DNA of 38,982 nt from an uncultured Candidatus Saccharibacteria bacterium (GCA_964373775.1 CAYJWA010000002.1:1-38982), one strand, 5' to 3'. Numbered from the stretch's first letter, positions 5,913 to 38,982 are shown. Program-made: numbers and translations. Notes: generated from the letters alone by a model not told the origin.

Positions 5913-5933
5913 ATCCACGGAACAGCACTGCTG

Positions 5934-5952
5934 TACAAGGTCCGACCTTGTA
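5934..5952. repeat. 19-bp palindrome family member (TACAAGGTCCGACCTTGTA)
   Basis: Perfect 9-bp arms, between convergent genes. Confidence 0.9.
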
Positions 5953-5988
5953 AGATGTCGGGGAACGGCTTAACGATGCCGTTTCTGG

Positions 5989-6009
5989 CTACAAGGTCCG
6001 ACCTCGTAG
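5989..6009. repeat. Palindrome family member (CTACAAGGTCCGACCTCGTAG)
   Basis: 10-bp arms with one mismatch, 37 nt after the previous copy. Confidence 0.85.
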
Positions 6010-6025
6010 ATTTAGTTCCGTGTTT

Positions 6026-9379: not shown

Positions 9380-11677
9380 ATGCAAAAATTCCAGCTGAAA
9401 AGCAAGTTCAGACCCGCTGGTGACCAACCAAAAGCTATTAAGGCATTGGTGGAAGGATTCAAGCGCGGCGAGCGGTATCAAACGCTACTTGGCGTTACCG
9501 GAAGCGGGAAAACCTTCACAGCGGCCAATGTGATTGCGCAGATTCAAAGGCCAACACTGGTGATTGCGCACAATAAAACGCTCGCGGCACAACTTGCGCA
9601 GGAGTACAAAGAGTTTTTTCCGGATAACGCGGTGCATTATTTTGTTTCCTACTACGATTACTACCAGCCGGAGGCGTATCTGCCTATAACCGACACCTAT
9701 ATTGAGAAAGAAGCGCAGATCAACGAGGAGATTGACCGCCTTCGGCACGCGACGACACAGGCGCTTCTCTCGCGCCGAGATGTGATTGTAGTTGCGAGCG
9801 TCTCGTGTATGTATGGGTTGGGAAGTCCCGAGGAATATGAAAAAGTGAATATAAAATTGCAAAAAGGACAGCGCGTCTCTCGCGGCGATGTTTTGCGCGC
9901 GCTCATCGGCATACATTATATACGTACGAACGCAGACCTATCCCCCGGCGAGTGCCGCGCGCTCGGCAATGTGGTGGAGGTAATGCCTCAAAGTGAGCGG
10001 GAGATGTATCGTATTGAGATTAGTGACGAGCTCGTTCAGCGGATTCAAAAGATTGACCCGATTACGCGGAAACTTTTGGAAGAAATAGATGCGTTGTTTA
10101 TTTTTCCGGCAAAACATTTCATCACGCCGGAGGAGGACCGCGCGCGAGCGATTGAGACAATCAAGAGTGAGCTGAAAAACCAGTTGAAGAAATTTGAAAA
10201 AGAGGGGAAATTGCTTGAAGCCGAGCGGCTTAAACGTCGCACCAACTATGACCTCGCGATGATACGCGAAGTCGGCTATTGCAACGGGATTGAAAATTAC
10301 TCACGCCACTTTTCGGGGAAACTCCCCGGCGAACCGCCCGATACCTTGCTTTCATATTTTTCCGCATCTCCAAGGTTCGACCTTAAATCGGGAGAAAGGT
10401 CGAACCTTGGAGATAGTGCAGATTTTTTGACCATCATCGACGAATCTCATGTGACAATTCCACAGCTTCGCGGAATGTATGCGGGGGACAAATCGCGGAA
10501 AGATACGCTTGTCGAACACGGCTTCCGTCTTCCCTCGGCGCGTGACAATCGTCCGTTACAGTTCCACGAGTTTGAGGAGCGGGTAGGGCAAGTGATTTTT
10601 ACCTCGGCGACGCCCGGGCCGTATGAGTTCGAGAAGAGCGGCACAGCAGTTGTCGAGCAGGTCATTAGACCGACTGGATTGGTTGACCCGCAGGTTGAAA
10701 TACGACCGGTAAGCGAGAACTTTTATTCCTCCTTTCCTAAAGGAGGCGCCCCGAATCTTCGAGGGACGGAGGATTTTAAAATCCCTCCTCCGATGTCACA
10801 TCGGAGTGCTCCCTTTAAGAAAGGGAGAAGAGATCGGCAGGGCTACTGCGGACAGATTCAGGACTTTAAAAAATCTACAAGGTCGGACCTTGTAAAAAAA
10901 GAGGGTTATAAAACAGGTTCTTTCACCCGTCTACAAGGTCGGACCTTGTATGGAGGGCAGGTTAAGGATTTCATCGCGGAGGCAGAAAAAGATATCAAAG
11001 CCGGTGGGCGGGTCATTGCGACGACGCTTACGAAGAAAATGGCCGAGGACCTCGCGGCGTTTCTCAAGGAAAAGGGTATCAAAACCGAGTACCTGCACAG
11101 CGACATTTTGACACTGGAGCGGATTATGATTCTGACGCGGTTTCGCAAGGGTGAGTTTGATTGTCTGGTGGGGGTTAATCTTTTGCGCGAAGGGCTGGAC
11201 CTTCCCGAGGTTTCGCTTATCGGCATTTTGGACGCTGACCGCGAGGGGTTTTTGCGTTCGCAGACATCACTCATTCAGATTATTGGTCGCGCGGCGCGCA
11301 ATGTCGCGGGGCGGGTGATTTTGTATGCGGATGTTATTACCGGTTCAATAGAAAAAGCGATTGGCGAGACGAATCGGCGCCGCGCGCTTCAGCTCGCGCA
11401 TAACAAAAAACACGGCATCACGCCGAAAACAATTATCAAAAAAGTGCGTGATATCATCGAAGCCTTCTGCTTGGAGCACGAAAAGGCCGTCAGTCACCTT
11501 ATGGAGATAGACAAAGAAGCGCTGAAAAATAAGACACTCAACCAGTTGCTCAAAGAAAAGAAAGTCCAAATGAACGCGGCAGTCAAAATTCTTGATTTCG
11601 AGACGGCCGCATTGCTCCGCGACGAAATCCGCGAGTTGGAGAAGCTGACACTGCATCCACTTATAATGTATCGCTGA
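9380..11677 (+). CDS. uvrB: Excinuclease ABC subunit B, carrying two in-frame repeat insertions
   Basis: MQKFQLKSKFRPAGDQPKAI...GVTGSGKTF, DESHVT, TLTKKMAEDL, GRAARN and the C-terminal UVR domain. ATG at 9380 fits orthologue N-termini. Confidence 0.95.
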   Translation: MQKFQLKSKFRPAGDQPKAIKALVEGFKRGERYQTLLGVTGSGKTFTAANVIAQIQRPTLVIAHNKTLAAQLAQEYKEFFPDNAVHYFVSYYDYYQPEAYLPITDTYIEKEAQINEEIDRLRHATTQALLSRRDVIVVASVSCMYGLGSPEEYEKVNIKLQKGQRVSRGDVLRALIGIHYIRTNADLSPGECRALGNVVEVMPQSEREMYRIEISDELVQRIQKIDPITRKLLEEIDALFIFPAKHFITPEEDRARAIETIKSELKNQLKKFEKEGKLLEAERLKRRTNYDLAMIREVGYCNGIENYSRHFSGKLPGEPPDTLLSYFSASPRFDLKSGERSNLGDSADFLTIIDESHVTIPQLRGMYAGDKSRKDTLVEHGFRLPSARDNRPLQFHEFEERVGQVIFTSATPGPYEFEKSGTAVVEQVIRPTGLVDPQVEIRPVSENFYSSFPKGGAPNLRGTEDFKIPPPMSHRSAPFKKGRRDRQGYCGQIQDFKKSTRSDLVKKEGYKTGSFTRLQGRTLYGGQVKDFIAEAEKDIKAGGRVIATTLTKKMAEDLAAFLKEKGIKTEYLHSDILTLERIMILTRFRKGEFDCLVGVNLLREGLDLPEVSLIGILDADREGFLRSQTSLIQIIGRAARNVAGRVILYADVITGSIEKAIGETNRRRALQLAHNKKHGITPKTIIKKVRDIIEAFCLEHEKAVSHLMEIDKEALKNKTLNQLLKEKKVQMNAAVKILDFETAALLRDEIRELEKLTLHPLIMYR
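10367..10413. repeat. Perfect 17-bp-stem hairpin element inside uvrB
   Basis: tctccaaggttcgacct (10367-10383), 13-nt loop, aggtcgaaccttggaga (10397-10413). Confidence 0.9.
10712..10954. repeat. 243-nt composite of stacked palindromes inserted in frame in uvrB
   Basis: Hairpins at 10728-10746, 10768-10788, 10790-10804 and 10809-10827, plus 19-bp palindromes at 10876-10894 and 10932-10950. Confidence 0.85.
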
Positions 11678-14064: not shown

Positions 14065-14088
14065 GTCGCCGCTGTTGATAGAAATAAG

Positions 14089-14212
14089 TAGATTAATGTT
14101 GTAAGATTAAGCATAACACAGATTAAAGTTGTAAGATTTAAGTACGACAGTAGAACTCAAAGCCGGATTTCCCTACTTTAATCTTTAATCTTTAATCTGA
14201 AATCTTAAATCT
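14089..14212. repeat. Low-complexity palindromic spacer: 2x ~30-nt AGATTAAWGTTGTAAGATT units facing 4x CTTTAATCT-type units
   Basis: Direct reading. The right-hand units are the reverse complement of AGATTAAAG. Confidence 0.8.
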
Positions 14213-15227: not shown

Positions 15228-17882
15228 ATGCAGCATCAAGGCGATAAAATCATTGTTAAGGGAGCACGGACACATAACCTTAAGAACATCACGGTTGAGA
15301 TGCCGCGCAATAAACTGATTGTATTCACCGGGCTTTCCGGAAGCGGGAAGTCGTCTTTGGCGTTTGATACGATCTTTGCGGAAGGTCAGCGCCGCTATGT
15401 GGAGTCGCTCTCTGCCTACGCGCGGCAGTTCCTGCGGCAGATGCAGAAGCCGGATGTGGACGAGATTATCGGACTCTCGCCGGCCATTTCCATTGACCAA
15501 AAGAGCCGTTCCAACAACCCGCGTTCAACGGTTGCGACCATTACCGAAATTTACGATTATCTGCGCGTCTTGTTTGCGCGCGTCGGGAAACCGCACTGTC
15601 TTCTCTGCGGGCGAGAAATCAAAAAGCTCTCCAACGAAGAAATTAAAGACACCATTTTGGAAGCGGTTGCGCGCGTGCGGAAAAGCGCTGCCGGGCCGAG
15701 GGTTCTTGGCGTCGCCGTGAGCAACGCGAAGCTCAAACTCTACGCGCCCATCGTCGTCGGGCGCAAGGGCGAGTACTACCAGTTGCTCTACGACTTGCTA
15801 GGAAAGGGGTACGCAGCGGTGAAGGTGGACGGTGTTGAGAAAAAACTGCGCGAGCCGATTGTCTTGGAGAAAAACAAGAAGCACGACATTGATGTGTTGG
15901 TAGACGAATTCTTTCTGTCGGAGCTCGCTAGGGGGAGCGACGCGACGAGGGAGCGTCTGCCGGAGGCAATTGAGCGCGCGCTCCACGAATCGGGCGGGCT
16001 CGTGCGCGTAGAAACATCTGCCGAGAGCAAGATTATTTCCGCCAAGTTTATGTGCCCCTACGACGGCTTTTCGTACCCAGAGGTGGAGCCGCGGCTCTTC
16101 TCTTTCAACTCGCCGTACGGCGCGTGTCCGGAATGCAACGGCCTCGGCACGCGGCATTTCTTCGGAGACGAGCCATGCCCGAAATGCAAAGGCGCGCGGC
16201 TGCGCGATGAATCTCTCCATGTCGTGCTCGGAAGCACGACCGCGGACAAGCGCGGACTGGACGCAGACCTACGCGGAAGGGGAAGCGGCGTAAACATTGT
16301 GCAGTTATCGGCCATGTCCATTGCGGATGCATACGACTTTTTCGTGGAGCTGAAGCTCTCGCCGAAGGAGCGGGAAATTGCCAAAGTCGTGCTCCGCGAG
16401 ATTGAGTCGCGACTGCAGTTTATGATTGATGTGGGTATTGAGTACCTCACACTTGACCGGCGGGCGCATACGCTCTCGGGCGGCGAGGCGCAGAGGATTC
16501 GGCTTGCCTCCCAACTGGGGAGCGGGCTCGTGGGCGCCCTGTATGTGCTTGACGAGCCGACCATCGGACTCCACGCGCGAGATAACGCGCGACTCTTGAA
16601 GACCCTTCTGCACCTGCGGGATATCGGGAACACGATTATTGTAGTGGAACATGATGAGGAAACGATTCTTTCCGCGGATTATTTGGTGGATATCGGTCCC
16701 GGAGCCGGCGTGCATGGCGGATACATTGTCGTTGACGGCGATTTGCAAAAGCTGTTGTCGGCAAAGACGAATGCAAGCAAGTCGCTGACACTTTCGTATC
16801 TGCGCGGCGAGGTGGAGATTGAAGTTCCGGAAACGCGCCGCACGCGAGACAAAGGCGCGCTCAAAATCCGCGGCGCAAAGATCTTCAACATACAAAATGT
16901 TTCGGTGGATGTGCCGCTTGGAAAACTGACGGTGATTACCGGCGTATCCGGTTCCGGCAAGTCCTCGTTTCTGTATGAGATTCTGCACAAAAATCTTCAG
17001 GCGCGGTTTGACCGCAGGTACCGAAGCGCTGAAACCTTTCACTGCAGCTCATTTACCGGTACTGAATACCTTTCACGCGCCATTCTCATAGACCAGTCCC
17101 CGATTGGGCGCACGCCACGCTCCAATCCTGCGACCTACACCGGAGCGTGGACATTCATTCGTGGGCTTTTTGCCGAAACTGAGGAGGCGCGCGTGCGCGG
17201 CTGGAGTCCGAGCCGCTTTTCGTTCAATGTGCCCACCGCAGGCGGGTCCGCCTCGGGCGGAAAAGGGGGTAGATGCGAAGCGTGCCAAGGGAACGGCGAG
17301 ATAGCCGTGGAGATGCACTTTCTCCCGACCGTCTATGTCACCTGTGATGTCTGCAATGGCAAGCGATTTATGAAAGAAACGTTGGAGGTGAGGTATAAGA
17401 AAAAAAGCGCCTACGACATACTTCAGATGACGATTGAGGAGTGTCTTGAATTCTTTGAGGATATCCCCGCGGTAGCCGATCGTTTAAAAACTTTAAACGA
17501 TGTAGGCCTAGGGTATCTAGAGTTGGGCCAATCCGCGACGACCCTCTCCGGCGGGGAGGCCCAACGGGTGAAAATATCCTCGGAACTCTATCGTACGCAT
17601 GTCCAAAAGACCATCTATCTTCTGGACGAGCCGACCGTGGGTCTCCACTACGAAGATGTAAAAAAGCTCATTGAGATTCTTCAGAAACTGGTGGACCACG
17701 GAAATACGGTCGTGGTCATTGAGCACAACATGGATGTGATTAAAAGTTCGGACTATGTTATTGACTTCGGGCCGGATGGCGGCGACGGGGGAGGGCAGAT
17801 TATCGCGAAGGGAACGCCGGAAGAAGTTGCAAGCCATAAGAAATCGTACACGGGGGAGTATTTGCGAAAGGCGCTTGGGTAG
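15228..17882 (+). CDS. uvrA: Excinuclease ABC subunit A
   Basis: [34 protein letters not shown], two ABC modules and zinc-finger cysteines. Confidence 0.95.
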
Positions 17883-17960
17883 ATTTAGGATTTATGATTT
17901 AAGATGTAAGAAAAAAACCAGCCGTTCATACCGACACGACTGGCATGGTTCCCTGGACGG

Positions 17961-18385: not shown

Positions 18386-19858
18386 ATGAATAGTCAAGCG
18401 TTTCCCAAGAGGCGAAGGATTTCAAAATCCCTCCCCCCACCGGGTACTCCCTTTAGAAAAGGGAGAATACCCGATACCCCCGGGGTGTATTTCTTTCTTG
18501 GGCGACCGCGAAGCGGTTTAGCCCGAGGGTCTCTACACCCTAAACCCGCAAGGGCGGGTCGGGTTTTGTATATCGGGCGCGCCGCCTCGCTCCGCAATCG
18601 CGTGCGAAGCTATTTCGCACCTGACATCGCGGAGAAGCGAAGCTCGTGGATTGCGAAGATGCTTACCGAGGCGAAGAGTATTAATTTCCGGAAAACCGAT
18701 TCAGTGCTTGAGGCAATTCTCCTTGAGGCATACCTTATCAAAAAACTTCAGCCGCCATACAATACGGAACAGAAAGACGACAAGAGCTTCAACTGCATCG
18801 TCATCACCGACGAGTCGTTTCCCGCGCTTATGGTCGCGCGTCAAAAGAACATAGACTTTTCCTCGGTAAGGATTAAGCCTGCCCGCCGAAACCTCGGCGC
18901 AGGCGGGGATGAAGGATTAAAGATTCGCGCCGTGTACGGTCCTTTCCCGCACGGTGAGGAACTTCAGACCGCGCTTAAAATCATCCGTAAGATTTTTCCC
19001 TTTCGCGACGATACATGTACGCCGTGCCCCCAAAGTATCAGAGGACATTCCAACATTCTCAAGAATGTTGGAATGTTGTGTCGCCCGTGCTTTAACAGGC
19101 AGATAGGACTTTGCCCGGGGGTCTGCACCGGCGAGATACGCGAGCGGGAGTACGCAAAAACAATTCGGAATATCCGGCTCTTTTTTGAGGGGAAAAAACC
19201 GCGACTGCTGAAACTGCTCAAATCAGAAATGAATGCCGCGGCAAAAGCGCAGGAATTTGAAAAAGCTAGCGTAGTTAAAAAAACCATCTTTGCTCTCCAG
19301 CACATCCAAGAGGTCGCCCTCCTCAAAACTTTTAACTTTACACTTTCAACTTTTAACTTCAGGATTGAGGCCTACGACCTCTCGCATTTCGGCGGAAAAG
19401 AAATAGTCGGCGCAATGGCGGTAGTTCTAAACGGCGTCGCGCAAAAAAGCGAGTATCGCCTGTTCAAACTGCGCGGCATCAGGTCGCAAAATGAAGTTGC
19501 CGGTTTGCAGGAAATTATCCGCCGCCGCTTGAATCATCCGGAATGGCTGTTTCCAGATTTGATTGTCGTTGACGGAAACGAGGTCCAGAAAAATGCGGCT
19601 GAAAAGATTCTGAAAGAATGGGGAAGAGTGATTCCGGTTGCCGCGGTCGTGAAAGACGAGCGCCATCGCCCGCGGGAAATTCTTAACAAGATGCTTGCTG
19701 TCGGGCAACCCTCCTACATTCCGAGGAATGTAGGAATATGGAGCGAACAGCAAGAATTACATGCGGCGATTCTTCTGGCGAACAGCGAGGCGCACCGATT
19801 CGTTCTGAAGTTCCAGCGCAGGCAGCGGCTGGTTAAACGAACCGCTGTGAAAAACTGA
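18386..19858 (+). CDS. uvrC: Excinuclease ABC subunit C. Short form with no C-terminal (HhH)2 domain and several in-frame hairpin insertions.
   Basis: GIY-YIG (PGVYFF...VLYIGRA...RNRVRSYF), UVR domain (EFEKASVVKKTIFALQ), endonuclease domain (IEAYDLSHFGG). Ends ~15 aa after SEAHRF. Confidence 0.9.
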   Translation: MNSQAFPKRRRISKSLPPPGTPFRKGRIPDTPGVYFFLGRPRSGLARGSLHPKPARAGRVLYIGRAASLRNRVRSYFAPDIAEKRSSWIAKMLTEAKSINFRKTDSVLEAILLEAYLIKKLQPPYNTEQKDDKSFNCIVITDESFPALMVARQKNIDFSSVRIKPARRNLGAGGDEGLKIRAVYGPFPHGEELQTALKIIRKIFPFRDDTCTPCPQSIRGHSNILKNVGMLCRPCFNRQIGLCPGVCTGEIREREYAKTIRNIRLFFEGKKPRLLKLLKSEMNAAAKAQEFEKASVVKKTIFALQHIQEVALLKTFNFTLSTFNFRIEAYDLSHFGGKEIVGAMAVVLNGVAQKSEYRLFKLRGIRSQNEVAGLQEIIRRRLNHPEWLFPDLIVVDGNEVQKNAAEKILKEWGRVIPVAAVVKDERHRPREILNKMLAVGQPSYIPRNVGIWSEQQELHAAILLANSEAHRFVLKFQRRQRLVKRTAVKN

Positions 19859-19892
19859 CTTTCCTTCAGAAGCGCTATTACGGATTCAGTTA

Positions 19893-19921
19893 TTGACAGA
19901 AAATAGCCCTTCGGCTATACT
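19893..19921 (+). promoter_or_regulatory. Near-consensus promoter TTGACA-N17-TATACT
   Basis: ttgaca (19893-19898), 17-nt spacer, tatact (19916-19921). Confidence 0.7.
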
Positions 19922-19927
19922 ATCCGA

Positions 19928-20060
19928 ATAACGCTGAAAAGAGTGAGTTGCGGCTATTCCCGACGAGATTACCAGGTGTTTGACCTGATTATCTTGCAGA
20001 GAGAAAACTAGCAATCAACAGAAGCAAAAAGAACCCCTGAAGAGCAGGGGGTTTTGTTGT
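19928..20060 (+). ncRNA. Candidate small RNA (~130 nt), family unknown
   Basis: Lies between the promoter at 19893-19921 and the terminator at 20034-20060. Internal hairpin agattaccaggt / acctgattatct. Only a 22-codon GTG ORF. Confidence 0.45.
20034..20060 (+). terminator. Intrinsic terminator
   Basis: cccctg-aagag-cagggg followed by gttttgttgt. Confidence 0.7.
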
Positions 20061-20076
20061 TATCTGCCTGTTACAG

Positions 20077-20266
20077 AAAGCACGAAACACTTTCTTAAAA
20101 CACAAAGCACAGTATCCAAAGAACCAAACAGACTTCACAAAACACAATACATCCACCATTCGGGGGATCTCCCGAAGTGAGACAAAAATCCAAACGAAAA
20201 GGCAAGTTTGTGTTTTGAGTAGTTTGAAGTTTTGTTTGGAAACCGTGCGGTCTGTGTTTTGGAAAG
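20077..20266 (+). repeat. Long structured palindromic element, copy 2 (upstream of rpoB)
   Basis: Core acaaaacacaatacatccaccattcgggggatctcccgaagtgagacaaaaa. The 3' end gtgcggtctgtgttttggaaag is shared with copy 3. Confidence 0.85.
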
Positions 20267-20303
20267 TTGATATGAATATTATTGGTAACGCAGCTCACCC
20301 TAT

Positions 20304-23300
20304 ATGAGCGCTCACCCGACAGAAGAAGCAATGATGAAAACCGCGCGTCAGAAGAAATATTTTGGCGCATACAAGCCGCCGCTCGCGGAGCTTCCGAATC
20401 TCGTGGCGCCGCAACTCGCTTCGTTTCAGTGGCTTCGGGAGAAGGGTCTCGCGGAAGTGTTTTCCGAATTCTCGTCCATCAAGGATTATTCGGGGAAAAA
20501 GTTTGAGCTTGATTTTACCGGCTTTAAGATTACCGAGCCGAAGTACGACGAATTTTATGCAAAGCAGAACAAGCTTTCCTTTGAGGCGCCGCTGAAAGTG
20601 ACGGTGCGCCTGCGCAACAAAATCGCCGGTTCCGTGAAGGAGCAGGAAATCTTTATGGCGGATTTGCCGCTGATGACAGCGCACGGCACTTTTATCATCG
20701 CCGGCATTGAGCGCGTTATTGTGCCGCAGCTCGCGCGGTCTTTCGGCGTATTTTTTACCGGGGATGAGATTAAGGGGAAAAAGCATTTCGGCGCAAAGAT
20801 TATTCCGGCGCGCGGCGCGTGGATTGAGATTGAGACGGATATTGACGGCGCGTTCTATGTGCGCATTGACCGCAAGCGGAAATTTCCGGTAACCGCGCTC
20901 CTGCGCATACTCGGGGCAAAAAGCGAAAAAGAGATTTCTGAACTCTTTGAAACTTCTCCCCTTGCGCGAGCGCACATACGCGCGACCCTTGCCAAGGACC
21001 ACGCGAAGACAGCAGAAGAGGCATACCTGGAGATTCACAAACGATTGCGGGACGGCGAGATTGGGAGCGTGGAGAATGCCAAAGAGTTCATTCGCTCCAT
21101 TTTTGAGCCGGAACGGTACGACCTCTCCAAAGTGGGGCGGTTCCGCTTCAACAAGAGGTTCGGAAAACCTATGGACGAGAAATCGCTTGAGAGGCGGACA
21201 ATTTCCCTTGATGATTGCGTTACGATTCTCGCGCACATCGCGTACTTGCAGAATACGCAGGGCTCCCGCGAAGATGATATTGACCACCTCGGAAGCCGTC
21301 GGGTGCGTTTTGTCGGAGAACTCTTCCAGCAGAAAATCCGCGTGGGCCTCGCGCAGATGAAACGAAATATCCAGGACCGAATGTCCACCGCAGAGTCAGA
21401 TGTAACGCTCCCCGACAAATTCATCTCTCCCAAGCCCCTGCAGGCGCGCATCAAGGAATTTTTTACCACGAATCAACTGTCGCAGTTCATGCAGCAGGAG
21501 AACATTCTTTCGGAATTGGAGCATCTGCGTACGCTCTCCGCTCTTGGTCCGGGAGGGCTTACGCGCGAGCGCGCGAGCTTTGAGGTGCGCGATGTGCACC
21601 CCTCCCACTATGGTCGGCTCTGTCCCATTCACACTCCGGAGGGACCGAACATCGGACTTATCTTGCGTCTCTCCACTTATGCGCGGCTCAATGACTTCGG
21701 AATGATTGAGACGCCGTATGCGAGGGTGTCCGGCGGGCGCATTACCAAAGAGATTCACTATCTGAACGCGCTGGAGGAAGAACAACATCGCATTTCCCAC
21801 GCGGCAATACCCTCTGGAGCGGACGGAATGATTCTTGCCGAGGAGGTGGAGGTGCGCTTAAACGGAAAGCCGGAACTGGTGAAGCGAAGCGAGGTTGATT
21901 ATATAGACATTGCCACCAATCAGGCATTTTCCATTGCCACCTCCATGATTCCGTTTCTCAATCATGATGACGCGAACCGAGCGCTCATGGGTTCAAACAT
22001 GCAGAAGCAGGCGACGCCGTGTCTTATCCCGGAGGCGCCGCTCGTTGCGACAGGAATTGAGGAGCGGGCCGCGCGCGACACCGGACGGCTTCTCCTGGCA
22101 GCGGCGGATGGAGTCGTTTCTTTTGTGGATGCGCGCCGCATCGTGGTCAAGGAAGCAAAAGGGAAGGAACGGGAATATCGATTGGTCTCTTTTTCCCGCA
22201 CCAACGGTTTTACGGCGTTCCACCAACGTCCCTCGGTCGCGGCGGGCGAGAAGGTAGAAAAAGGCGCCGTGCTTGCCGATACCTCATCCTCCGAGGGAGG
22301 GCAGATGGCGCTCGGACAAAATATTCTTGCCGCGTTCATGTCGTGGTCCGGGGCCAACTATGAAGACGCGATTATTATTTCCGAGCGGTTGGTAAAGAAC
22401 AGTCGTTTTACGAGCATACACATTGAAGAGTTTGTCGTGAATGTCCGCGATACCAAGTTGGGGCCGGAGATCACCACGCACGACATCCCGAATGTTGGCG
22501 AGGCGAAGTTGAAAAACTTGGATGAGGACGGTGTTGTCCGCATCGGCGCCGAGGTCCGTCCCGGAGACATTTTAGTGGGTAAGATTACTCCGAAAGGGGA
22601 ATCCCAGCTTACCCCGGAGGAGCGATTGCTCCGCTCGCTTTTTGGAGAGAAGGCGCGGGATGTGAAAGATACTTCAAAGCGCATGGAGAACGGCAAACGC
22701 GGCCGCGTCTTGAGCGTCAAAGTGTTCTCGCGGGAACGCGGGGATAAGCTGGAGAGCGGCATTATCAAGCGCATTCATCTGGAGGTGGCGGAACTGCGCG
22801 CGGTATCGGTCGGAGACAAGCTTGCGGGCCGGCACGGCAATAAGGGAGTTATTTCCCGGGTGCTTCCGGAAGAGGATATGCCGTATCTTTCGGACGGGAC
22901 CCCGGTTGATATGATTTTAACGCCTTTAGGCGTGCCCTCGCGCATGAATCTCGGGCAGATTTTGGAACTGCATTTGGGGCGCGCGGCGCACGCGCTCCAG
23001 TATCAGGCGATTGTGCCGCCGTTTGCGGGAGCAACGGATACGGAGATTAAAGAAGAGCTCGTGCGCGCCGGATTTCAGGCGAACGGGAAGACGAAACTTT
23101 TTGACGGACGGACCGGCGAGCCCTTCAGTCAGGATATTGCGGTCGGGTATATGTATCTCATGAAGCTTCATCACATGGTTGAGGACAAGATTCATATGCG
23201 AAGCATCGGTCCCTATTCGCTCATTACTCAACAGCCGCTGGGCGGCAAAGCCCAGGGAGGAGGGCAGAGGTTCGGAGAAATGGAGGTCTGGGCTCTTCTC

Positions 23301-23567
23301 GGTCACGGCGCTGCTCACATTCTCCGCGAGATGCTCACAATAAAATCCGATGACATCCTGGGGCGTTCGGCAGTGTTTGACGCGATTGTCAAGGGACGGC
23401 GGTGGAGCGACGCGAATGCCCCCGCTTCTTTCAGCGTGCTTTTGCACACTTTGCGCGGGCTCGCGCTTCAGGTGGAATTGCAGAAGGAAGGAGAGGCCGC
23501 CGCGCCAGTCCACAAAAGGTCGGGGTATGCGGCGCGGGAGCGGATGCGGGAGCGATACTCCGCGTAA
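20304..23567 (+). CDS. rpoB: DNA-directed RNA polymerase subunit beta
   Basis: Full-length collinear beta subunit (GPGGLTRERA, NMQKQA, GRHGNKGVIS, MVEDKIHMRS). Alternative starts ATG at 20331/20334. Confidence 0.95.
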   Translation: MSAHPTEEAMMKTARQKKYFGAYKPPLAELPNLVAPQLASFQWLREKGLAEVFSEFSSIKDYSGKKFELDFTGFKITEPKYDEFYAKQNKLSFEAPLKVTVRLRNKIAGSVKEQEIFMADLPLMTAHGTFIIAGIERVIVPQLARSFGVFFTGDEIKGKKHFGAKIIPARGAWIEIETDIDGAFYVRIDRKRKFPVTALLRILGAKSEKEISELFETSPLARAHIRATLAKDHAKTAEEAYLEIHKRLRDGEIGSVENAKEFIRSIFEPERYDLSKVGRFRFNKRFGKPMDEKSLERRTISLDDCVTILAHIAYLQNTQGSREDDIDHLGSRRVRFVGELFQQKIRVGLAQMKRNIQDRMSTAESDVTLPDKFISPKPLQARIKEFFTTNQLSQFMQQENILSELEHLRTLSALGPGGLTRERASFEVRDVHPSHYGRLCPIHTPEGPNIGLILRLSTYARLNDFGMIETPYARVSGGRITKEIHYLNALEEEQHRISHAAIPSGADGMILAEEVEVRLNGKPELVKRSEVDYIDIATNQAFSIATSMIPFLNHDDANRALMGSNMQKQATPCLIPEAPLVATGIEERAARDTGRLLLAAADGVVSFVDARRIVVKEAKGKEREYRLVSFSRTNGFTAFHQRPSVAAGEKVEKGAVLADTSSSEGGQMALGQNILAAFMSWSGANYEDAIIISERLVKNSRFTSIHIEEFVVNVRDTKLGPEITTHDIPNVGEAKLKNLDEDGVVRIGAEVRPGDILVGKITPKGESQLTPEERLLRSLFGEKARDVKDTSKRMENGKRGRVLSVKVFSRERGDKLESGIIKRIHLEVAELRAVSVGDKLAGRHGNKGVISRVLPEEDMPYLSDGTPVDMILTPLGVPSRMNLGQILELHLGRAAHALQYQAIVPPFAGATDTEIKEELVRAGFQANGKTKLFDGRTGEPFSQDIAVGYMYLMKLHHMVEDKIHMRSIGPYSLITQQPLGGKAQGGGQRFGEMEVWALLGHGAAHILREMLTIKSDDILGRSAVFDAIVKGRRWSDANAPASFSVLLHTLRGLALQVELQKEGEAAAPVHKRSGYAARERMRERYSA

Positions 23568-23569
23568 AA

Positions 23570-23726
23570 GCACAAGCACGAAACAATCTTCTTACAACAC
23601 AAAACACAGTGTCTCCACCCTTCGGGGGATCTCCCGAAGGGAGACAAAAACCCAACGGGGAAATGAGTTTGTGTTTTGAAAAGATTGTGTTTTGTCTGGA
23701 CTTTGTGCGGTCTGTGTTTTGGAAAG
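23570..23726 (+). repeat. Long structured palindromic element, copy 3 (rpoB-rpoC intercistronic)
   Basis: Core acaaaacacagtgtctccacccttcgggggatctcccgaagggagacaaaaa. Starts 3 nt after the rpoB stop. Confidence 0.85.
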
Positions 23727-23770
23727 GGTAAGAAGTTCTTGTTTCGGCTTTGCCAAGTAATCCTTATTGT

Positions 23771-26700
23771 ATGAAATCAAAAACGATCTCCAACTTCAAT
23801 GATTTTGATTCCCTCTTTCTCCGTCTCGCGTCTCCGGATGATATTGTCTCGTGGTCGTTTGGAGAGGTGACGAAGCCCGAGACCATCAACTATCGGACCC
23901 AGAGAAGCGAAAAAAACGGCCTTTTTGACGAGAGGATTTTCGGACCGGACCGCGATTATGAATGTTATTGCGGCAAGTACCGCGGCGTTCGTTACAAAGG
24001 AATCGTCTGCGAAAAATGCGGGGTGGAATTGACGCGCGCCATTGTCCGGCGGGAGAGGATGGGACATATTGAGCTTGCGGCTCCGGTCTCTCATATCTGG
24101 TTTTTGCGGAGCATGCCGTCGCGGCTCGGTCTCGTTCTCGGCATGTCAGCGCTTGATTTGGAAAAAGTCGTTTATTTTGCCGGGTATCTTATCACCCGCG
24201 TGGTGCCGGAAGAGCGGGAGCGGATTTTGCGGGAGCTTGATTCAGAGTACAAGAGCAAGGCCAAAGCTCTGTTGGATGAAAAGGAGCGCGAGGAACTCAA
24301 GGCGCGGTTCCTCCAAGGGAAGCAGGTTGTTGAGGGGCTTCAAGCCGGGGATGTATTGGATGAAGTGGCGTATCACGACTATTCGCGCAAGTACGGCACT
24401 CTTTTTGAAGCCGGAGTCGGCGCCGAAGCAATTTACAATTTGGTCGCGGCGCTTGACCTTGCGAAATTATGCCGCCAACTGGAAGAAGCGCAGACGCGCG
24501 CCGGCGCCGCGGAGCGGGAGCGGCTCTCCAAGCGGCTCTCGCTTCTCCGCTCCATGATTTCGTCCGGCGTCCGCCCGGAGTGGATGTTTCTTACCCGCAT
24601 TCCGGTGATTCCGCCGGCGCTCCGTCCCATGGTTCCTTTAGACGGCGGACGGTATGCGACCTCGGATGTCAATGATCTGTACCGGCGGGTGATTAACCGA
24701 AACAATCGGCTACGGAAACTCAAGGAAATCAAAGCGCCTGATGTGATTTTGCGCAATGAGAAGCGTATTCTGCAGGAAGCGGTTGATTCTCTGATTGATA
24801 ATGCCATCCGTCACGGTGCCACGCAGGCAGGCGCGCAGAGTATTGCGTCGCGGCGCGCGCTCAAGTCCCTTTCTGACAATCTCAAAGGTAAACGCGGACT
24901 CTTTCGCCAAAATCTTTTGGGGAAGCGGGTTGATTATTCCGGCCGTTCCGTCATCGTGGTGGGACCAACCTTGCACTTGCACCAGTGCGGACTGCCGAAG
25001 CATATGGCGCTGGAACTTTTCCGCCCGTTTATCATCCGGAAGCTCTTGGAGCGCGAGCTTGCGTTCAATATCCGCGGCGCCGGGCGGCTCATTGAAGAAG
25101 GCGTCTCCGAAGTATGGGCGATTCTGGAGGAGGTGATTGCTGACAAGTTCGTTCTTCTAAACCGCGCCCCCACTCTCCATCGCTTAGGAATTCAGGCATT
25201 CCAGCCGGTACTCATTGAGGGGAGCGCCATTCAGGTGCACCCGCTCGTCTGTACCGCGTTTAACGCGGATTTTGACGGCGACCAGATGGCGGTGCATGTG
25301 CCGCTCTCGCCCGAGGCGCAGGCAGAGGCGCGCGAAATAATGGCGGCGCACAAAAATATCTTGAAGCCCGGGAGCGGCGACCCGATTGTGTCCGCAAAGA
25401 TGCTTGACATCGTGCTCGGCTGTTGGTGGATGACGAAACTGGTGCCGGGCGCAAAAGGCGAAGGGAAATATTTTGCTTTTCCGAACCGCGCGGTTACCGC
25501 ATTTGATTTCGGCGCGGTTGATTTCCGCGCAAAAATCAAAGTGCTCGGAAGCGAAAAAGGCAAGTATAGCGAATTTAGCGGAAAGTTGTTCGAGACATCA
25601 GTCGGCAGGATTCTTTTCAACGGGGTGCTGCCGGACGATTACCCCTACCTCAATAAGGAGATGGAACGCAAAAGCATGGCGACGCTCGTTGATGAACTGA
25701 TTACCCGTTATGGCATCGCGCGCATGCCGGAGATTATGGACCGTATCAAGGCATTCGGTTTTAAGTACGCGACTCATTCGGGCATCACCTGGGGAATTGA
25801 CGATGTGACGGTTCCCGCGGGGAAGGACGCTGTTATTGCGGCAGCGCGGGAGCGGTCTTTGGCGGTGTTTGTTGAGTGGCGGGAGGGGCTTCTTTCTGAA
25901 GAGGAACGATTGCGGAAAAACATTGAGATTTGGCACGCGGCAAAAGCGCAGGTGGAGAAACTTATCCCCGCGTCGCTTGATAAAAACGGTTCCGTTTATG
26001 ACATGGTATTTTCCGGCGCACGCGGTTCGTTTTCGCAGATTACGCAGATGGCGGGCATGAAGGGGCTTATCCAGAATACGGCGGGGGAGACTATTGAGTT
26101 TCCGATCCTCTCCTGTATGAAAGAGGGATTGACGCCCATTGAGTATTTCATTACGACGCACGGTTCCCGCAAAGGACTTACGGATACTGCCTTAAACACC
26201 GCAAAGGCGGGGTATCTCACCCGGAAGCTCTTCGTGGTGGCGCAGGATGTTATTATTACCGAGGAGGATTGCGGCACGAAGGAGGGAATTATCATCCGGC
26301 GCACCGGAGCCGCGGGCATTGAGGTGTCGTTTGCGAAGAGCATTCGCGGGCGGTTTCTCGCTGCTCCCGCGGTTCTCGCGGACGGAACGGTCTTGTTCAA
26401 AAAAGGACACCTTCTCTCAAAGGGAGATGCGCGGAAGATTGAGGATGCGGGCGTAACCGAGGTCTCCGCCCGCTCTCCGCTCTCCTGCAAAACCGCGGGT
26501 GGGGTATGCGCGCGCTGTTACGGCATGGACTTGGGCAAAAACGAGCCCGTAGGGCTTGGCGAAGCAGTCGGTACGGTTGCCGCGCAAGCAATTGGAGAGC
26601 CGGGAACCCAGCTGACGATGCGCACCTTCCATACCGGCGGCGTTTCGTCACTCGGCGGAGACATCACGCAGGGTCTTCCGCGCGTGGAAGAATTGTTTGA

Positions 26701-27454
26701 AAAGAGGAGCCCCAAAAATCCGGCCGTGGTTTCCCGGACGGACGGCACGGTATTGGAGGTGAAGAGCACGGGGAAAGAGAAGGTGATTATGGTATTGCCC
26801 GAGGCGCCGCAGAAGCGGGGGAAGAAGACGGGAGCGATTGAATACGCGATGAGTTATAATCGCATTCCGTTCGTAAAAGAGGGGCAGCGCGTGAAGAAAG
26901 GAGACATTCTGACCGACGGGGCCGTAGACATTGACGAGCTCTTTGAGTATGGCGGCCGCGAACGCGCGCAGGAATACATTATCGCGGAAGTCGCAAAGCC
27001 CTACGAGTTGCAGGGAGAGACCGTTTCTCGCAAGCACATAGAGGTGATTGTGCGGCAGATGTTCAGCCGGCGCCGCGTCTCTGACGCCGGCGGCACCGCG
27101 CTCTCTGTCGGCGATGTGGTTGATGAGGTGTTTCTTTCGGCGCAAAACGAAGCAGCGCAGGAGCGCGGAGAGGAGCCGGCAAAGACAGAACTTCTCGTTC
27201 TCGGCATCTCGGAGGTGTCGCTCTCGCGCCGTTCCGTTCTTGCGGCCGCGTCATTCCAGCACACGACGCGCGTCCTTATCTCCGCTGCGGTGCGCGGCAG
27301 CCGCGACCACCTGCGGGGACTGATGGAAAATGTCATCATCGGACGGCTCATCCCGGCAGGCACTGGATTTGCGGGAGGTCCTAAAGCGCAGATGATTGAA
27401 GAAGTGCAAGCAGAGTTGGCGCAAGAGGCGTCTGAAGAATTGAATACTCAATGA
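23771..27454 (+). CDS. rpoC: DNA-directed RNA polymerase subunit beta'
   Basis: Zn-finger [34 protein letters not shown] and the trigger-loop region. ATG at 23771 is preferred over the track's TTG at 23750. Confidence 0.95.
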
Positions 27455-27861: not shown

Positions 27862-28875
27862 ATGAGTTTTTTCACCCCCAAACTCGGAATTGACCTCGGC
27901 ACCGCCAACACCTTGGTGTATGTTCCGGGCAAGGGCATTGTGCTCAATGAGCCGTCCGTGGTGGCGGTCTCCGAGCAGGACAATCGGATTCTTGCGGTCG
28001 GGGATGAGGCGAAGAAGATGGTGGGGAAGACACCGGAAGAGATCGTGGCGTACCGGCCCATGAAAGACGGAGTGATTGCGGACTACCGCGTGACCGAGGC
28101 AATGCTCCGGTACTTTATTACGAAAGCCCTCGGCAGATGGAACATCTGGAAGCCGGAAGTGCTCGTTTCTGTGCCCGCAGGCGTTACTTCAACAGAGCGG
28201 CGCGCCGTGATTGAAGCCGCCATCAAAGCCGGCGCGAAGAACGCGTATGTGGTGAAGGAGCCGATTCTTGCGGCAATCGGCGCGGGCATCCCGATTCACG
28301 AGCCCGTGGGGCACATGATTGTGGACATTGGCGGCGGCACCACCGATGTTGCGGTCATATCGCTCGGCGGCATCGTCTCTTCCACTTCAGTCAAGTGCGC
28401 CGGAAACCGCGTTGATTCCGCAATTGCGGATTACATCAAAAAGACCTTTAACCTCGCGATTGGCGACAAGATGGCGGAAGATGTGAAGATAGAGATCGGC
28501 TCTGCTGTTCCGTTGGAGGAGGAACTCTCCCTCCTGATTAAGGGACGCGACTTCATTACCGGGCTTCCGCGCACCGCAGAGGTGAAGACAAATGAAGTCG
28601 TGAAGGCAATCGGCAGGGAACTGCGGGAGATGATTAAATCAATCAAGGATGTTCTGCAGGAGACGCCGCCGGAGCTCTCTGCGGATATTATTGACCGAGG
28701 GATTATTATGACCGGCGGCTCGTCCCAGTTGCGCAACTTTCCGGAGTTGGTCTTCCGGCGGACCGGCGTGAAAGCAGTGCTCGCGAAAGACGCGCTCTTC
28801 TGCGTGGCAAAGGGCACCGGCATCGCGCTCGCGCACCTGGATACCTACAAGAAGTCAGTCATTGCGAAGAGGTAG
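27862..28875 (+). CDS. mreB: Rod shape-determining actin homologue MreB
   Basis: GIDLGTANTLVY, DIGGGTTDVAV and MTGGSSQLRN. Confidence 0.95.
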   Translation: MSFFTPKLGIDLGTANTLVYVPGKGIVLNEPSVVAVSEQDNRILAVGDEAKKMVGKTPEEIVAYRPMKDGVIADYRVTEAMLRYFITKALGRWNIWKPEVLVSVPAGVTSTERRAVIEAAIKAGAKNAYVVKEPILAAIGAGIPIHEPVGHMIVDIGGGTTDVAVISLGGIVSSTSVKCAGNRVDSAIADYIKKTFNLAIGDKMAEDVKIEIGSAVPLEEELSLLIKGRDFITGLPRTAEVKTNEVVKAIGRELREMIKSIKDVLQETPPELSADIIDRGIIMTGGSSQLRNFPELVFRRTGVKAVLAKDALFCVAKGTGIALAHLDTYKKSVIAKR

Positions 28876-28880
28876 GAGAT

Positions 28881-28985
28881 GCAGAACAGGGAACAGGGAA
28901 CAGGGAACAGGGAACATGAAATATGGAATATGAAATATGAAATAGGGAACAGGGAACATGAAATATGGAACATGAAATATGAAAT
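28881..28985. repeat. Heptamer microsatellite array (15 units of AGGGAAC / ATGAAAT / ATGGAAY), including a 2x 42-nt tandem duplication
   Basis: Direct reading. The 42-nt units lie at 28902-28943 and 28944-28985. Confidence 0.9.
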
Positions 28986-29000
28986 CGGCATTTTCCCTGC

Positions 29001-29146
29001 GAGTTATCCCCGTAGTGAATTTTTGCATCGTTGCTGTCGCAACAGTTTAGAAGGGAATTTAGAAAACACAGGATTTTTGGCGTTTTTGAAGTGATTTGCG
29101 ATTTAGCGGCAACGCAATGCGAAAATCTACTACGGGGTTATCCACA
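29001..29146. repeat. ~40-bp imperfect inverted repeats flanking a 66-nt core, upstream of the giant gene. The right arm has a perfect DnaA-box 9-mer.
   Basis: gagttatccccgtagtgaatttttgcatcgttgctgtcgc versus the reverse complement of gcggcaacgcaatgcgaaaatctactacggggttatccac. TTATCCACA at 29138-29146. Confidence 0.7.
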
Positions 29147-36692: not shown

Positions 36693-36741
36693 GAGAAGCG
36701 GTTAGTCCGCCATCTGGCGGATAGCGGTTAGCGTTTAGCAA

Positions 36742-36774
36742 GCAAAATCCTCTGCATGAGGCAGAGGATTTTGC
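36742..36774 (+). terminator. Intrinsic terminator after the giant gene
   Basis: 14-bp stem gcaaaatcctctgc / gcagaggattttgc, loop atgag, T-rich tail. Flanked by inverted CTAAACG-type repeats. Confidence 0.8.
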
Positions 36775-36828
36775 GATTCTTGTCTTTTCTTACTAAACGC
36801 TATACGCTAACCACTAAACGCTTCCCCC

Positions 36829-37575
36829 ATGACTTTCCACATCATCACTCTCTTCCCCCGCGCCTTTGACTCTTACCTCGGAGAGTCCATCTTACAGCGC
36901 GCCATTCTGGACAAGAAAATCAAGGTGAAGTTTTACAACCCGCGCGACTTCGCCGAAGACAAACACAGACGCATAGATCGCGCGCCGTACGGAGGCGGGC
37001 CCGGGATGGTGATTCAAGCGGAACCGGTACTCAAAGCAGTAGAAACTGCTTTGAGAGATTTAAGATTTAAGATTTATGATTTAAGAAAGAAGAAGCTAAA
37101 CACTAAACGCTCTACGCTAAACGTTTTTCCCAAAATCATCTGGCTATCGCCAAGCGGAAAGCAATTTACGAATGAGACCGGTATAAAATTCGCGCAATGC
37201 AGCGACCTTATCATCATCTGCGGGCGGTACGAGGGGATAGACGCGCGCGTGAAAAAAGTTCTACAAGACACGGCACGAATCCGCCGCGGCGGACGAATAA
37301 AATTGGAAGAGATATCAGTTGGACCGTTTGTGCTGACCGGCGGGGAACTGCCCGCAATGCTTCTGATTGATGTAATATCTCGACAGGTAGAAGGAGTGCT
37401 CGGCGACCCTCGCTCGCGCGAGGAGTCGCGAGTCGCAAGTCCGGAAGTGTACACCCGCCCGGAGGTTTTTCTGTATCGCGGAAAGAAATATCGCGTCCCC
37501 AAAATCCTCCTCTCCGGCCACCACCGGAAAATCGACGAGTGGCGACAAAGAAAAAGGAATTTTACGAGCATCTGA
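36829..37575 (+). CDS. trmD: tRNA (guanine37-N1)-methyltransferase, with two in-frame repeat insertions
   Basis: ITLFPRAF, DRAPYGGGPGMV, CGRYEGIDARV, LTGGELPAM and RPEV...VPKILLSGHH. Confidence 0.95.
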   Translation: MTFHIITLFPRAFDSYLGESILQRAILDKKIKVKFYNPRDFAEDKHRRIDRAPYGGGPGMVIQAEPVLKAVETALRDLRFKIYDLRKKKLNTKRSTLNVFPKIIWLSPSGKQFTNETGIKFAQCSDLIIICGRYEGIDARVKKVLQDTARIRRGGRIKLEEISVGPFVLTGGELPAMLLIDVISRQVEGVLGDPRSREESRVASPEVYTRPEVFLYRGKKYRVPKILLSGHHRKIDEWRQRKRNFTSI

Positions 37576-37602
37576 TTCTCGTAACGAGAATCAGATGCTC
37601 GT
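37564..37602. terminator. Perfect 39-nt palindrome spanning the stop codons of convergent trmD and the MFS gene
   Basis: acgagcatctgattctcgt-a-acgagaatcagatgctcgt: 19-bp arms with no mismatch. Confidence 0.85.
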
Positions 37603-38763
37603 GTTCACCTTCTCCATAAGTCCGAAAGCGATGAGGCCGACCAAGATGAGTCCGAGCGCGAGCGAGAGCACTGCGTTCGCGCCAAAGTTCTGCCAGAGTA
37701 AGCCGCCGATGATTCCCGCAAAAAGTACGCCGAAGCCGATGCTTGCATGCAGGAGCCCGTATGCGTTGCCGCGTTCTCCCGCGAGGGTCAGCCGCGCCGC
37801 GAATGAGCGTTGGACCCCGTCCGTGAATGCGTATCCGATGCCGAGGAGTACAAATCCGAACGCGAGCGCGGAGAGCGTGTGGTCGTAAATCATCAAGAGA
37901 TACGCGAGGGCAATCAAGAGATAGCCGCCGAGAATGACGGGCTTATCGCCGACTTTGTCAGCGAGCCGTCCGGCTTTATACGAAAAGAGGGTGTTTGAGA
38001 TATTGAAGAAAAGATAAAAAAGCGGGATAAAACTTATCTCCAGTCCGAGGTCTTGGGTGCGCAAGAGAAGGAGCGCGATGGGGAGATTCGCGAGCGAAAG
38101 AAGGAAGATAATGATAAGGAAGCGCCGGAACTCCTTAGTGTGCGCGGTGAGGCGCAACCGGAGCCGTTTGATGTTTCCCCCTGTTGCGGCGCTTACCTCG
38201 CGGATAAAGGCAAATGAAAAGAGGGCAAGAACGCCAACTACAAATGCGGTAATGAAGACCGTGTTGAATGCTTCCGGCGCTCGCGCGAGAATGAGAAATG
38301 CGACCAATGGGCCAAGAATAGCTCCGGCAGAATCCATGGCTCGGTGAAAGCCGAAACTGCGTCCCAACTGTGCGGAGTTTGCGGAAAGAGAGAGGAGCGC
38401 ATCGCGCGGGGCTTCCCGGATCCCTTTGCCGATTCGGTCCACAATACGAATGCCGAGAATATGCGCAGCCGTGCTGGAAACAAGATAAAACGGGCGCGTG
38501 GCAACAGAGAGCGCGTATCCAAAAAGGGCAAGGGATTTGCGTTGCTCCCATTTATCCGAAAGCCGGCCGGAGATGACTTTTGTTAGATTCGCGAACCCGT
38601 CCGCCACGCCCTCAATGAATCCGAGCGAAGCCGCGCCGGATTTTAAGACCGAGCTGAAGAACGCGGGGAAAACGGAAAGAATCATCTCGTTTGAGAAATC
38701 ATTGAAGAACGAGACGAGCCCCATGAAGAAGACATTTTTTTCTACGCCGAAAAGTTTGCGCAT
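37591..38763 (-). CDS. MFS transporter
   Basis: 390 aa, about 12 predicted TM helices, GRLSDKWEQRK-type loop 2-3 motif. Confidence 0.85.
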   Translation of the reverse strand: MRKLFGVEKNVFFMGLVSFFNDFSNEMILSVFPAFFSSVLKSGAASLGFIEGVADGFANLTKVISGRLSDKWEQRKSLALFGYALSVATRPFYLVSSTAAHILGIRIVDRIGKGIREAPRDALLSLSANSAQLGRSFGFHRAMDSAGAILGPLVAFLILARAPEAFNTVFITAFVVGVLALFSFAFIREVSAATGGNIKRLRLRLTAHTKEFRRFLIIIFLLSLANLPIALLLLRTQDLGLEISFIPLFYLFFNISNTLFSYKAGRLADKVGDKPVILGGYLLIALAYLLMIYDHTLSALAFGFVLLGIGYAFTDGVQRSFAARLTLAGERGNAYGLLHASIGFGVLFAGIIGGLLWQNFGANAVLSLALGLILVGLIAFGLMEKVNTSI

Positions 38764-38807
38764 GCAATACGAATTACGAATAGAATACGAAATACGAATG
38801 GGAGAAC
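38764..38807. repeat. ACGAAT(W) heptamer microsatellite forming the MFS 5' UTR
   Basis: caatacgaattacgaatagaatacgaaatacgaatggg read directly. Confidence 0.85.
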
Positions 38808-38813
38808 AGCGCT

Positions 38814-38822
38814 ATTGTAACA
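38814..38822 (-). promoter_or_regulatory. Extended -10 element (TGtTACAAT) for the MFS gene
   Basis: Minus strand reads atgttacaat. No good -35. Confidence 0.4.
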
Positions 38823-38895
38823 TGGCGACAGAAATCTTTGCTGTGTGCGGATGGACGGGCCCGTTCGTTCATAGCAGATACGTTTAACGAATAGA

Positions 38896-38982
38896 GGTAG
38901 ATACACTTGACGAATGGTGCACACGAATACCAAAAGCGGTAGATACACTTGACGAATGGTGCACGCGAATTTTAGGAAGGCG
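38896..38982. repeat. 42-bp-period tandem repeat at the window end (about 2 units), continuous with nt 1-55
   Basis: ggtagatacacttgacgaatggtgcacacgaa at 38896-38927, then taccaaaagc + the same core at 38928-38969. Confidence 0.9.

Follow-up and report, generated by a model that had tools for sequence, protein, structure and literature searches.

Nested palindromic repeats in the rpoB-rpoC spacer of a Patescibacteria bacterium

Introduction

In Escherichia coli, the spacer between rplL and rpoB contains an attenuator and an RNase III site, forming a structured, co-transcribed intercistronic RNA that tunes the synthesis of the RNA polymerase subunits. Here, we analyze a stretch of 38,982 nucleotides (the window), a chromosomal piece of a Patescibacteria bacterium whose genes include uvrB, uvrA, uvrC, rpoB, rpoC, mreB, tgt, and trmD, and whose RpoB finds its best matches in Candidatus Taylorbacteria (82–93% BLAST identity). 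Its rpoB-rpoC spacer is comparable to the E. coli site in that a structured intercistronic RNA, presumably co-transcribed, lies within a polymerase operon and could tune subunit synthesis. It differs in that the hairpin lies between rpoB and rpoC rather than between rplL and rpoB, has no terminator, is a member of a repeat family and is not conserved in outgroups. Patescibacteria genomes are very small and streamlined, so that an essential operon is not where selfish repeats would first be expected. The locus holds two nested layers of hairpin repeat within the rpoBC operon, at a site where the sequence has repeatedly been replaced within the clade.

In architecture and placement the window element resembles Correia elements, REP/REPIN sequences and miniature inverted-repeat elements (MITEs), and its central core resembles the Rickettsia palindromic elements (RPE) in behavior. 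Correia elements can serve as binding and cleavage sites for RNase III, with altered expression of neighboring genes as a result (PMC2649163). Like the window element, these repeats of Neisseria (CREE/NEMIS) are dispersed, 100–200 nt long, bounded by inverted-repeat ends and located intergenically beside genes, and they form a long hairpin; they are co-transcribed with their neighbors, as is presumed for the window element. The likeness extends to general architecture only: there is no sequence similarity, the phylum is a different one, the arms of the window element consist of short reiterated units, and a second mini-element is nested at its apex. Neither a TA target duplication, an IHF site or a promoter generated by the ends, nor the 26-bp repeats of the Neisseria type, was found in the window element.

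Intercistronic REPs stabilize upstream mRNA, and REPs near a stop codon stall ribosomes (PMC12306157; PMC3733652). Several features recall the REP, BIME and REPIN sequences of Proteobacteria: the core is a high-copy imperfect palindrome of 36–39 nt, inverted arrangements yield larger hairpins, and the base of the stem lies 2 nt past the rpoB stop codon. Unlike a REP, the core consists of two 6-bp hairpins in tandem instead of a single stem, and it has no GTAG/CGTC tag at its end; the window showed no RAYT transposase, and copies of the core also occur in coding sequences, whereas REPs are by definition extragenic. This last property is known from RPE, which, like the core, are found inside long open reading frames (ORFs) with the frame kept; small mobile repeats at intergenic and intragenic sites have been reviewed (PMC2229807). 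RPE are about 100–150 nt long and belong to one genus, whereas the core is much shorter, unrelated in sequence and present in several Patescibacteria lineages. Finally, the palindromic repeats of organelles (hairpins of sponge mitochondria, and those of Volvox and fungi) are described as selfish sequences that invade the spacers of small genomes, nest and turn over fast (PMC2800124; PMC2670323; PMC7218506). Invasion, nesting and turnover are alike in the window element, but the hosts are eukaryotic organelles and there is no homology.

The window element thus lacks defining features of Correia, REP/REPIN and MITE sequences: no target duplication, tag, strict extragenic placement or cognate transposase was seen. 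No description of such repeats was found in the literature on Patescibacteria (CPR).

The rpoB-rpoC Spacer

The rpoB gene (β subunit of RNA polymerase, 1087 aa) occupies positions 20304–23567 on the plus strand, ends with a TAA stop codon at 23565–23567 and encodes the six Pfam Rpb2 domains 1, 2, 3, 45, 6, and 7. It is followed on the same strand by rpoC (β′ subunit, 1227 aa counted from the ATG; 23771–27454), with Pfam Rpb1 domains 1–5; the ATG at 23771 opens the MKSK start common to relatives. The 203-nt spacer between them (23568–23770) had been proposed to consist almost wholly of one structured element, and this is borne out. Nearly all of it is predicted to form a single long hairpin (copy C, 23570–23753; MFE −67.5 kcal/mol, z = −3.44), and none of 200 dinucleotide shuffles folds as well. 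The original prediction had placed the element at 23570–23726, ending 45 nt before the rpoC start codon. Its start stands, but the structure reaches 23753, about 27 nt further in the 3′ direction, which leaves only 17 nt unpaired before the ATG. The 31 outer base pairs are predicted in helices of 3, 4, 8, 8, and 8 bp; the length criterion for RNase III is at least about 20 bp of near-continuous double-stranded RNA.

The outer stem is formed by the 5′ arm (23570–23607), which holds the CA-rich unit CAAAACAC (23600–23607), and by positions 23714–23753 of the 3′ arm. Alignment with copy B (see below) and with the orthologous spacer of the related contig L008 shows that about 35 nt are missing from the left arm of copy C. 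The GT-rich 3′ arm (23667–23753) carries three TGTGTTTTG motifs (at 23670, 23686, and 23713) and is conserved in all six aligned family members. As in MITEs, the ends of the element are terminal inverted repeats (CTTTCnnAAAACACAG ... CTGTGTTTTGGAAAG). Its apical loop contains a twin-hairpin mini-palindrome, the core (23613–23651), with the organization TCC(A)CCC-TTC-GGGGGA, TCTCCC-GAA-GGGAGA, C, AAAAA. The 17-nt linker that follows the hairpin (23754–23770) is the ribosome-binding region of rpoC; neither the MFE nor the centroid structure pairs any of it, and it contains no strong Shine-Dalgarno sequence.

A sequence scan of positions 23568–23770 found no sigma-70-like promoter and no intrinsic-terminator-like site on either strand, as had been predicted, and a G+C-rich hairpin followed by a T-tract, as expected of an attenuator or intrinsic terminator, is likewise absent from both strands of the spacer. 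The same scan did detect the promoter (11 of 12 positions) and the terminator 5′ of rpoB. Co-transcription of rpoB and rpoC across the spacer is the simplest reading, so that the element would be transcribed within the rpoBC mRNA. The spacer belongs to no Rfam family: at the gathering threshold the whole window yielded two tRNAs only, and permissive scans (E-value up to 10) of 23540–23790 and 19850–20320 returned chance-level matches (E 0.5–9), far under the gathering scores. Public k-mer contigs from the same population end within the high-copy core (23626–23643); the presumed join across the core is backed by synteny and by the complementarity of the arms, not by a single spanning Logan contig.

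Copies of the Element in the Window

The original prediction held that the same structure precedes both polymerase genes. This is correct for copy B (about 20078–20268, plus strand), but a third copy, copy A (about 1140–1277, plus strand), had been missed. Copy B is located between the terminator of the rpoB leader and rpoB itself. It is the most complete of the three, with arms of 51 nt that are 71% complementary and a mini-palindrome at 20151–20189, and it folds significantly better than shuffled sequence (z = −3.13). The decayed copy A, which has retained a mini-palindrome (1159–1197) and lost most of its left arm, lies 5′ of an unrelated gene (ATG at 1395), the product of which is a secreted protein of low complexity. 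Its fold is no better than that of shuffles (z = −0.28), and this profile is the expected look of a decaying repeat.

All three copies, which lie within 39 kb, are on the same strand. The 23-nt pattern of the core has three matches in the window against none expected, and TGTGTTTTG has nine against 0.33 expected, every one of them within the three copies; repetition of the element in the window is far above chance. A DNA-uptake sequence was ruled out, the arm motif being restricted to these copies. By inspection, no direct repeat beside copies A, B, and C suggests a target-site duplication, and no transposase, including those with a Y1 domain, was present among the scanned ORFs of the window. 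With no other mobility signature found either, the label “mobile” would rest on distribution and copy number.

A query with the right arm retrieved true homologues in metagenome contigs from related Candidatus Taylorbacteria (L014, L018, L021/L024, and L026). These adjoin other genes, one of which is metG-like (a methionyl-tRNA synthetase-like start, judged by N-terminal sequence), and have different apices without the mini-palindrome.

The Core Mini-Palindrome

Sequence depth over 23620–23649 is 81–100 times that of the flanks in three metagenomes that contain the same population; the arms reach only about twice that of the flanks, in line with copies B and C. Contigs carrying further copies of the core have a depth equal to that of the genome of the window in each sample, and the flanking contigs track the depth of this genome too. 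Together, this indicates tens of core copies per genome, in agreement with the three present in 39 kb, where copy number is the summed k-mer depth of contigs and may overcount about two-fold and include other community members. The core is therefore a high-copy palindrome of 36–39 nt, as short as the palindromes of REPs.

The core pattern also matched seven other genomes, from Parcubacteria, Azambacteria, Saccharibacteria, and other Patescibacteria, in near-identical copies. There, it is a bare 36-nt unit (GTCNCCC-TAC-GGGNGA, TCTCCC-GAA-GGGAGA, C, AAAAA), equivalent to 12 codons, with no stop codon in any of the three sense frames. At five of the seven loci the core lies inside a long ORF, in sense orientation and with the frame kept, and it is thus not strictly extragenic as a REP would be. 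The positions within ORFs are 7839–7877 in L001, 3410–3448 in L002, 308–346 in L003, 3194–3232 in L004, and 377–415 in L007. The encoded peptide reads ...SPxGGSPEGRQK... or ...LPTGDLPKGDKK..., and inspection of the translations suggests that the host ORFs are polA, an NDH-type oxidoreductase, a membrane glycosyltransferase, L31 (at the C-terminus), and UvrD.

Across 12 copies of the core, the twin-hairpin fold pairs 91.7% of cells compared to 81.8% for a single long hairpin, a key pair of which is broken in 7 of the 12 sequences. The putative twin-hairpin fold is supported by covariation, one pair occurring as CG, UA, AU, and UG. A covariance model of the core matches copy C at 58.4 bits, copy C being among the sequences used to build it. 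The model recovered no copies beyond the set from which it was built. Searched with it, the DNA retrieved from related Taylorbacteria and the remaining contigs contained none, and the viral contigs scanned for the core gave no match.

Spacers of Related Genomes

To place the spacer in its history, about 10 kb on each side of rpoB was read in relatives, and RpoB identities to the window were taken from a MAFFT alignment. The closest relatives, L008/L009 (RpoB 94%), have a spacer of 215 nt with arms and flanks homologous to those of the window, where the arms are of the CAAAACAC type. A compensatory change, TAC/GTA in the window and TAA/TTA in L008, is apparent in the aligned outer stem, and the core is absent. 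Copy B corresponds to the L008 spacer hairpin with a 36-nt insertion exactly at the apical loop. Three relatives with an RpoB identity of 84% carry an unrelated, CGAAT-type hairpin in spacers of 133 nt (L010), 116 nt (L012), and about 106 nt (L029). The spacer of about 88 nt in L030 (83%) contains a hairpin of the AGATTAAAG type, and that of L028 (83%) is reduced to 37 nt with remnants of the motifs only. The outgroups L031, L032, and L033 (76–77%) have spacers of 11, 23, and 26 nt, respectively, without a hairpin.

A significant spacer hairpin (z about −4 to −5 versus shuffles) is thus found in six of the seven subclade members, and it belongs to at least three unrelated sequence families. 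Long rpoB-rpoC spacers are therefore a derived feature of one subclade; the site has been occupied by at least three unrelated hairpin families, and the hairpin has been lost in one lineage. The rpoB-rpoC gap of this Taylorbacteria subclade repeatedly receives or keeps such hairpin repeats.

Short spacers in relatives, together with polymorphism or absence of the element among near-identical strains, had been named beforehand as signs of a neutral insertion. The first of these is seen, in the short spacers of the distant relatives and L028, and the nearest relative is without the core. The second is not: near-identical contigs from the population showed no presence/absence polymorphism of the element.

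The Region Upstream of rpoB

Upstream of copy B and rpoB lies a compact unit on the plus strand (19893–20062). It starts with a strong sigma-70-type promoter, TTGACA-17-TATACT (19893–19921), which agrees with the consensus at 11 of 12 positions, continues with a leader of about 110 nt that contains the conserved blocks GAGTGAGTT(C/G)CG, ATCTTGCTAAGC, and AACTAGCAA, and ends with an intrinsic terminator (20030–20062). The unit has been kept in all nine related loci (L009, L010, L012, L028, L029, L030, and the outgroups L031–L033), with an insertion of about 90 nt in L028 and L030; in the outgroups the leader unit is present and the hairpin element absent. It has no match in Rfam. We regard it as a candidate leader of rpoBC, of the attenuator or riboswitch-like kind, or else as a possible small RNA in its own right. 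It is this unit, and not the hairpin, that is the counterpart of the E. coli attenuator.

The gene order in most relatives is trmD, an MFS gene on the minus strand, the leader, and rpoB. In the window and in L009, the leader and rpoB follow uvrC, and in the window the trmD-MFS pair is found at the far end (18386–20303 and 36829–38763). The uvrC-leader-rpoB order is a subclade-specific rearrangement.

Other Hairpins in the Window

About half of the intergenic regions of the window contain long hairpins. Besides copy C, hairpins without a T-tract are present between a histidine kinase gene and a response regulator gene (14119–14199), between mreB and the gene for a giant surface protein (29001–29143), between the latter and trmD (36717–36812), and in the gap at 5913–6025, among others. 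The AGATTAAAG motif family of the L030 spacer also builds the hairpin at 14119–14199. In a scan that misses gapped hairpins such as that of copy C, non-coding DNA contained seven strong ungapped inverted repeats in 6.0 kb, among them a hairpin in the gap between the histidine kinase and the response regulator, and coding DNA five in 33 kb, so that their density is about eight times higher in non-coding DNA. The longest MFE helix, determined in a sliding window, did not separate coding from intergenic DNA.

Discussion

The element in the rpoB-rpoC spacer is a small dispersed palindromic repeat. We think it likely that it is a selfish or tolerated hairpin repeat with generic RNA effects of the REP and Correia kind, and not an RNA dedicated to the polymerase. 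It would have been built in two layers. The first is an imperfect inverted repeat with long arms, one CA-rich and the other GT-rich, that consist of CAAAACAC/GTGTTTTG units; it was probably in place in the rpoB-rpoC spacer before the window and its closest relative diverged. The second, the mini-palindrome of 36–39 nt, would be a separate high-copy mobile mini-element that landed later in the apical loop.

Within the rpoBC mRNA, the element is predicted to fold into about 31 outer base pairs and additional inner helices, with the last 17 nt before rpoC single-stranded. Most likely, its sole contribution is this additional hairpin in the mRNA of both genes. By analogy with REP and Correia sequences, the likeliest effect would be to offer RNase III a double-stranded target and/or to obstruct exonucleases and the terminating ribosome, and through such processing or protection the rpoB and rpoC segments of the mRNA would have separate fates. 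That the hairpin leads to processing or uncoupling of the rpoBC mRNA is plausible, and transcription, folding and cleavage of the element may occur in vivo. The hairpin is dispensable, as its loss from L028 and the short spacers of the outgroups show. If such hairpins are processed, they would give organisms that have few regulators a simple and evolvable means to uncouple β and β′ synthesis; otherwise, the locus indicates how large a load of selfish DNA these genomes tolerate. In either case, spacers of this kind mimic dedicated riboregulators and call for caution in annotation.

Two further readings, taken together, can be put forward only tentatively. According to the one, the core is an undescribed mini-element that spreads among Patescibacteria, into the loops of hairpins and in frame into essential genes; it would be a miniature counterpart of RPE, but distributed across phylum-level lineages. 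The other holds that the Taylorbacteria have recruited an interchangeable, structure-only hairpin module that separates the expression of rpoB and rpoC, which would explain why a hairpin persists through at least three replacements of its sequence.

Taken by itself, an intercistronic module that is selected for structure only (an RNase III site, mRNA stabilizer or translational uncoupler), for which any hairpin repeat suffices while the sequence turns over, is in our view unlikely. Persistence of a hairpin at this exact site in six of seven subclade members despite complete sequence turnover may mean selection for structure, but L028 has lost its hairpin, the outgroups work with 11–26 nt, and the site is not special, given similar hairpins in many other gaps of the window. 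In the window, L010, L012, L029, and L030, the base of the stem lies 0–3 nt past the stop codon and 8–17 nt remain free ahead of the start codon; such tight filling would suit a module, and is equally expected where the whole spacer is inserted DNA. The compensatory change in the outer stem between the window and L008 also argues for selection on structure, and the absence of presence/absence polymorphism among the population contigs counts against the selfish-repeat reading. A comparison of strands (G-U pairs and MFE, sense versus antisense) gave no consistent direction: the sense strand has the better fold in the window and in L008, and a clearly worse one in L010 (−26.3 versus −40.6 for the antisense strand), L012, and L030. 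The comparison therefore gives no sign that the sense RNA in particular has been under selection.

The original prediction favored an RNA linked to the polymerase, placed before both rpoB and rpoC to balance β and β′, for example through autogenous binding. Significantly structured, sense-strand copies do lie directly 5′ of both polymerase genes. However, the third copy stands before an unrelated gene, other members of the arm family adjoin the metG-like gene and further genes, and the mini-palindrome at the center of the element is a high-copy sequence common to several phyla, occurring in tens of copies in the genome and also in coding genes of distant Patescibacteria. Moreover, the hairpin 5′ of rpoB in the closest relative is a different one, built from ACACGGAAC/GTTCCGTGT units, and only the promoter-leader-terminator unit is conserved at that position in all relatives. 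We regard a polymerase-specific function of the hairpin as very unlikely; the conserved leader is the better candidate for real regulation of the polymerase.

It seems highly improbable that the element acts primarily at the level of DNA, through cruciforms or through GTGTTTTG arrays that bind a protein, in nucleoid organization, recombination or as a single-stranded substrate of a transposase, with RNA effects that are incidental. The arm motif, although repeated in inverted arrays, is confined to the three copies and not found genome-wide, and neither a candidate binding protein nor a Y1 transposase was seen in the window. The similar folding energy of both strands of the element, with the antisense strand favored in several relatives, and the GATC inside a near-perfect palindrome of the core would be compatible with such a role. 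The orientation of the core, sense in five of five coding insertions and in all three window copies, fits a bias linked to transcription or replication and decides nothing.

TIGR-Tas systems are common in Patescibacteria, and their tigRNAs are hairpins with variable stems, sometimes with an inner hairpin, that occur in CPR bacteria (10.64898/2026.09.09.750476). A known small-RNA gene (a stem-loop tigRNA of TIGR-Tas or a CRISPR repeat) or an assembly artefact, of which the break of contigs in the core might be a sign, is nonetheless extremely improbable, and the tigRNA reading was rejected, as the three aligned copies show no conserved box C/D-like motif on either side of the inner region, the scanned ORFs of the window include no Nop-domain (Tas) gene, Rfam gives sub-threshold noise only, and the locus was recovered identically in three to four samples, with the arms present in independent assemblies of the closest relative.

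Further Repeats in the Window

A second repeat family, composed of AGATTTAAG / CTTAAATCT units, is present in the window at 14083–14212, 17881–17912, 37056–37100, and 957–996. It forms the hairpin that separates the histidine kinase gene from the response regulator gene and is found again in other gaps; the rpoB-rpoC hairpin of L030 belongs to this motif family too.

Palindromes were also observed inside the uvrB ORF (828 aa), at 10366–10414 and 10876–10950. One of them consists of two units of the REP-like repeat TACAAGGTCGGACCTTGTA, a sequence also found intergenically at 628–648 and 5932–6008. UvrB is usually shorter than 828 aa, and these palindromes have the appearance of insertions into a repair gene that keep its frame.

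Just 3′ of mreB, positions 28871–28985 consist of 7-nt tandem repeats (variants of GGGAACA and TGAAATA). This tract is followed by the hairpin of about 140 nt at 29001–29143, 5′ of the surface-protein gene (2493 aa). In the related contig L010, a reverse-transcriptase gene (RVT_1, 326 aa; 1153–2133) lies a few kb 5′ of rpoB.

The last intergenic region of the window (38764–38982) contains CGAAT-type motifs that resemble those of hairpins in related genomes. A 55-nt direct repeat with 98% identity is common to both ends of the window (1–55 and 38928–38982, and also 38886–38940), so the window may be a contig that closes on a repeat.
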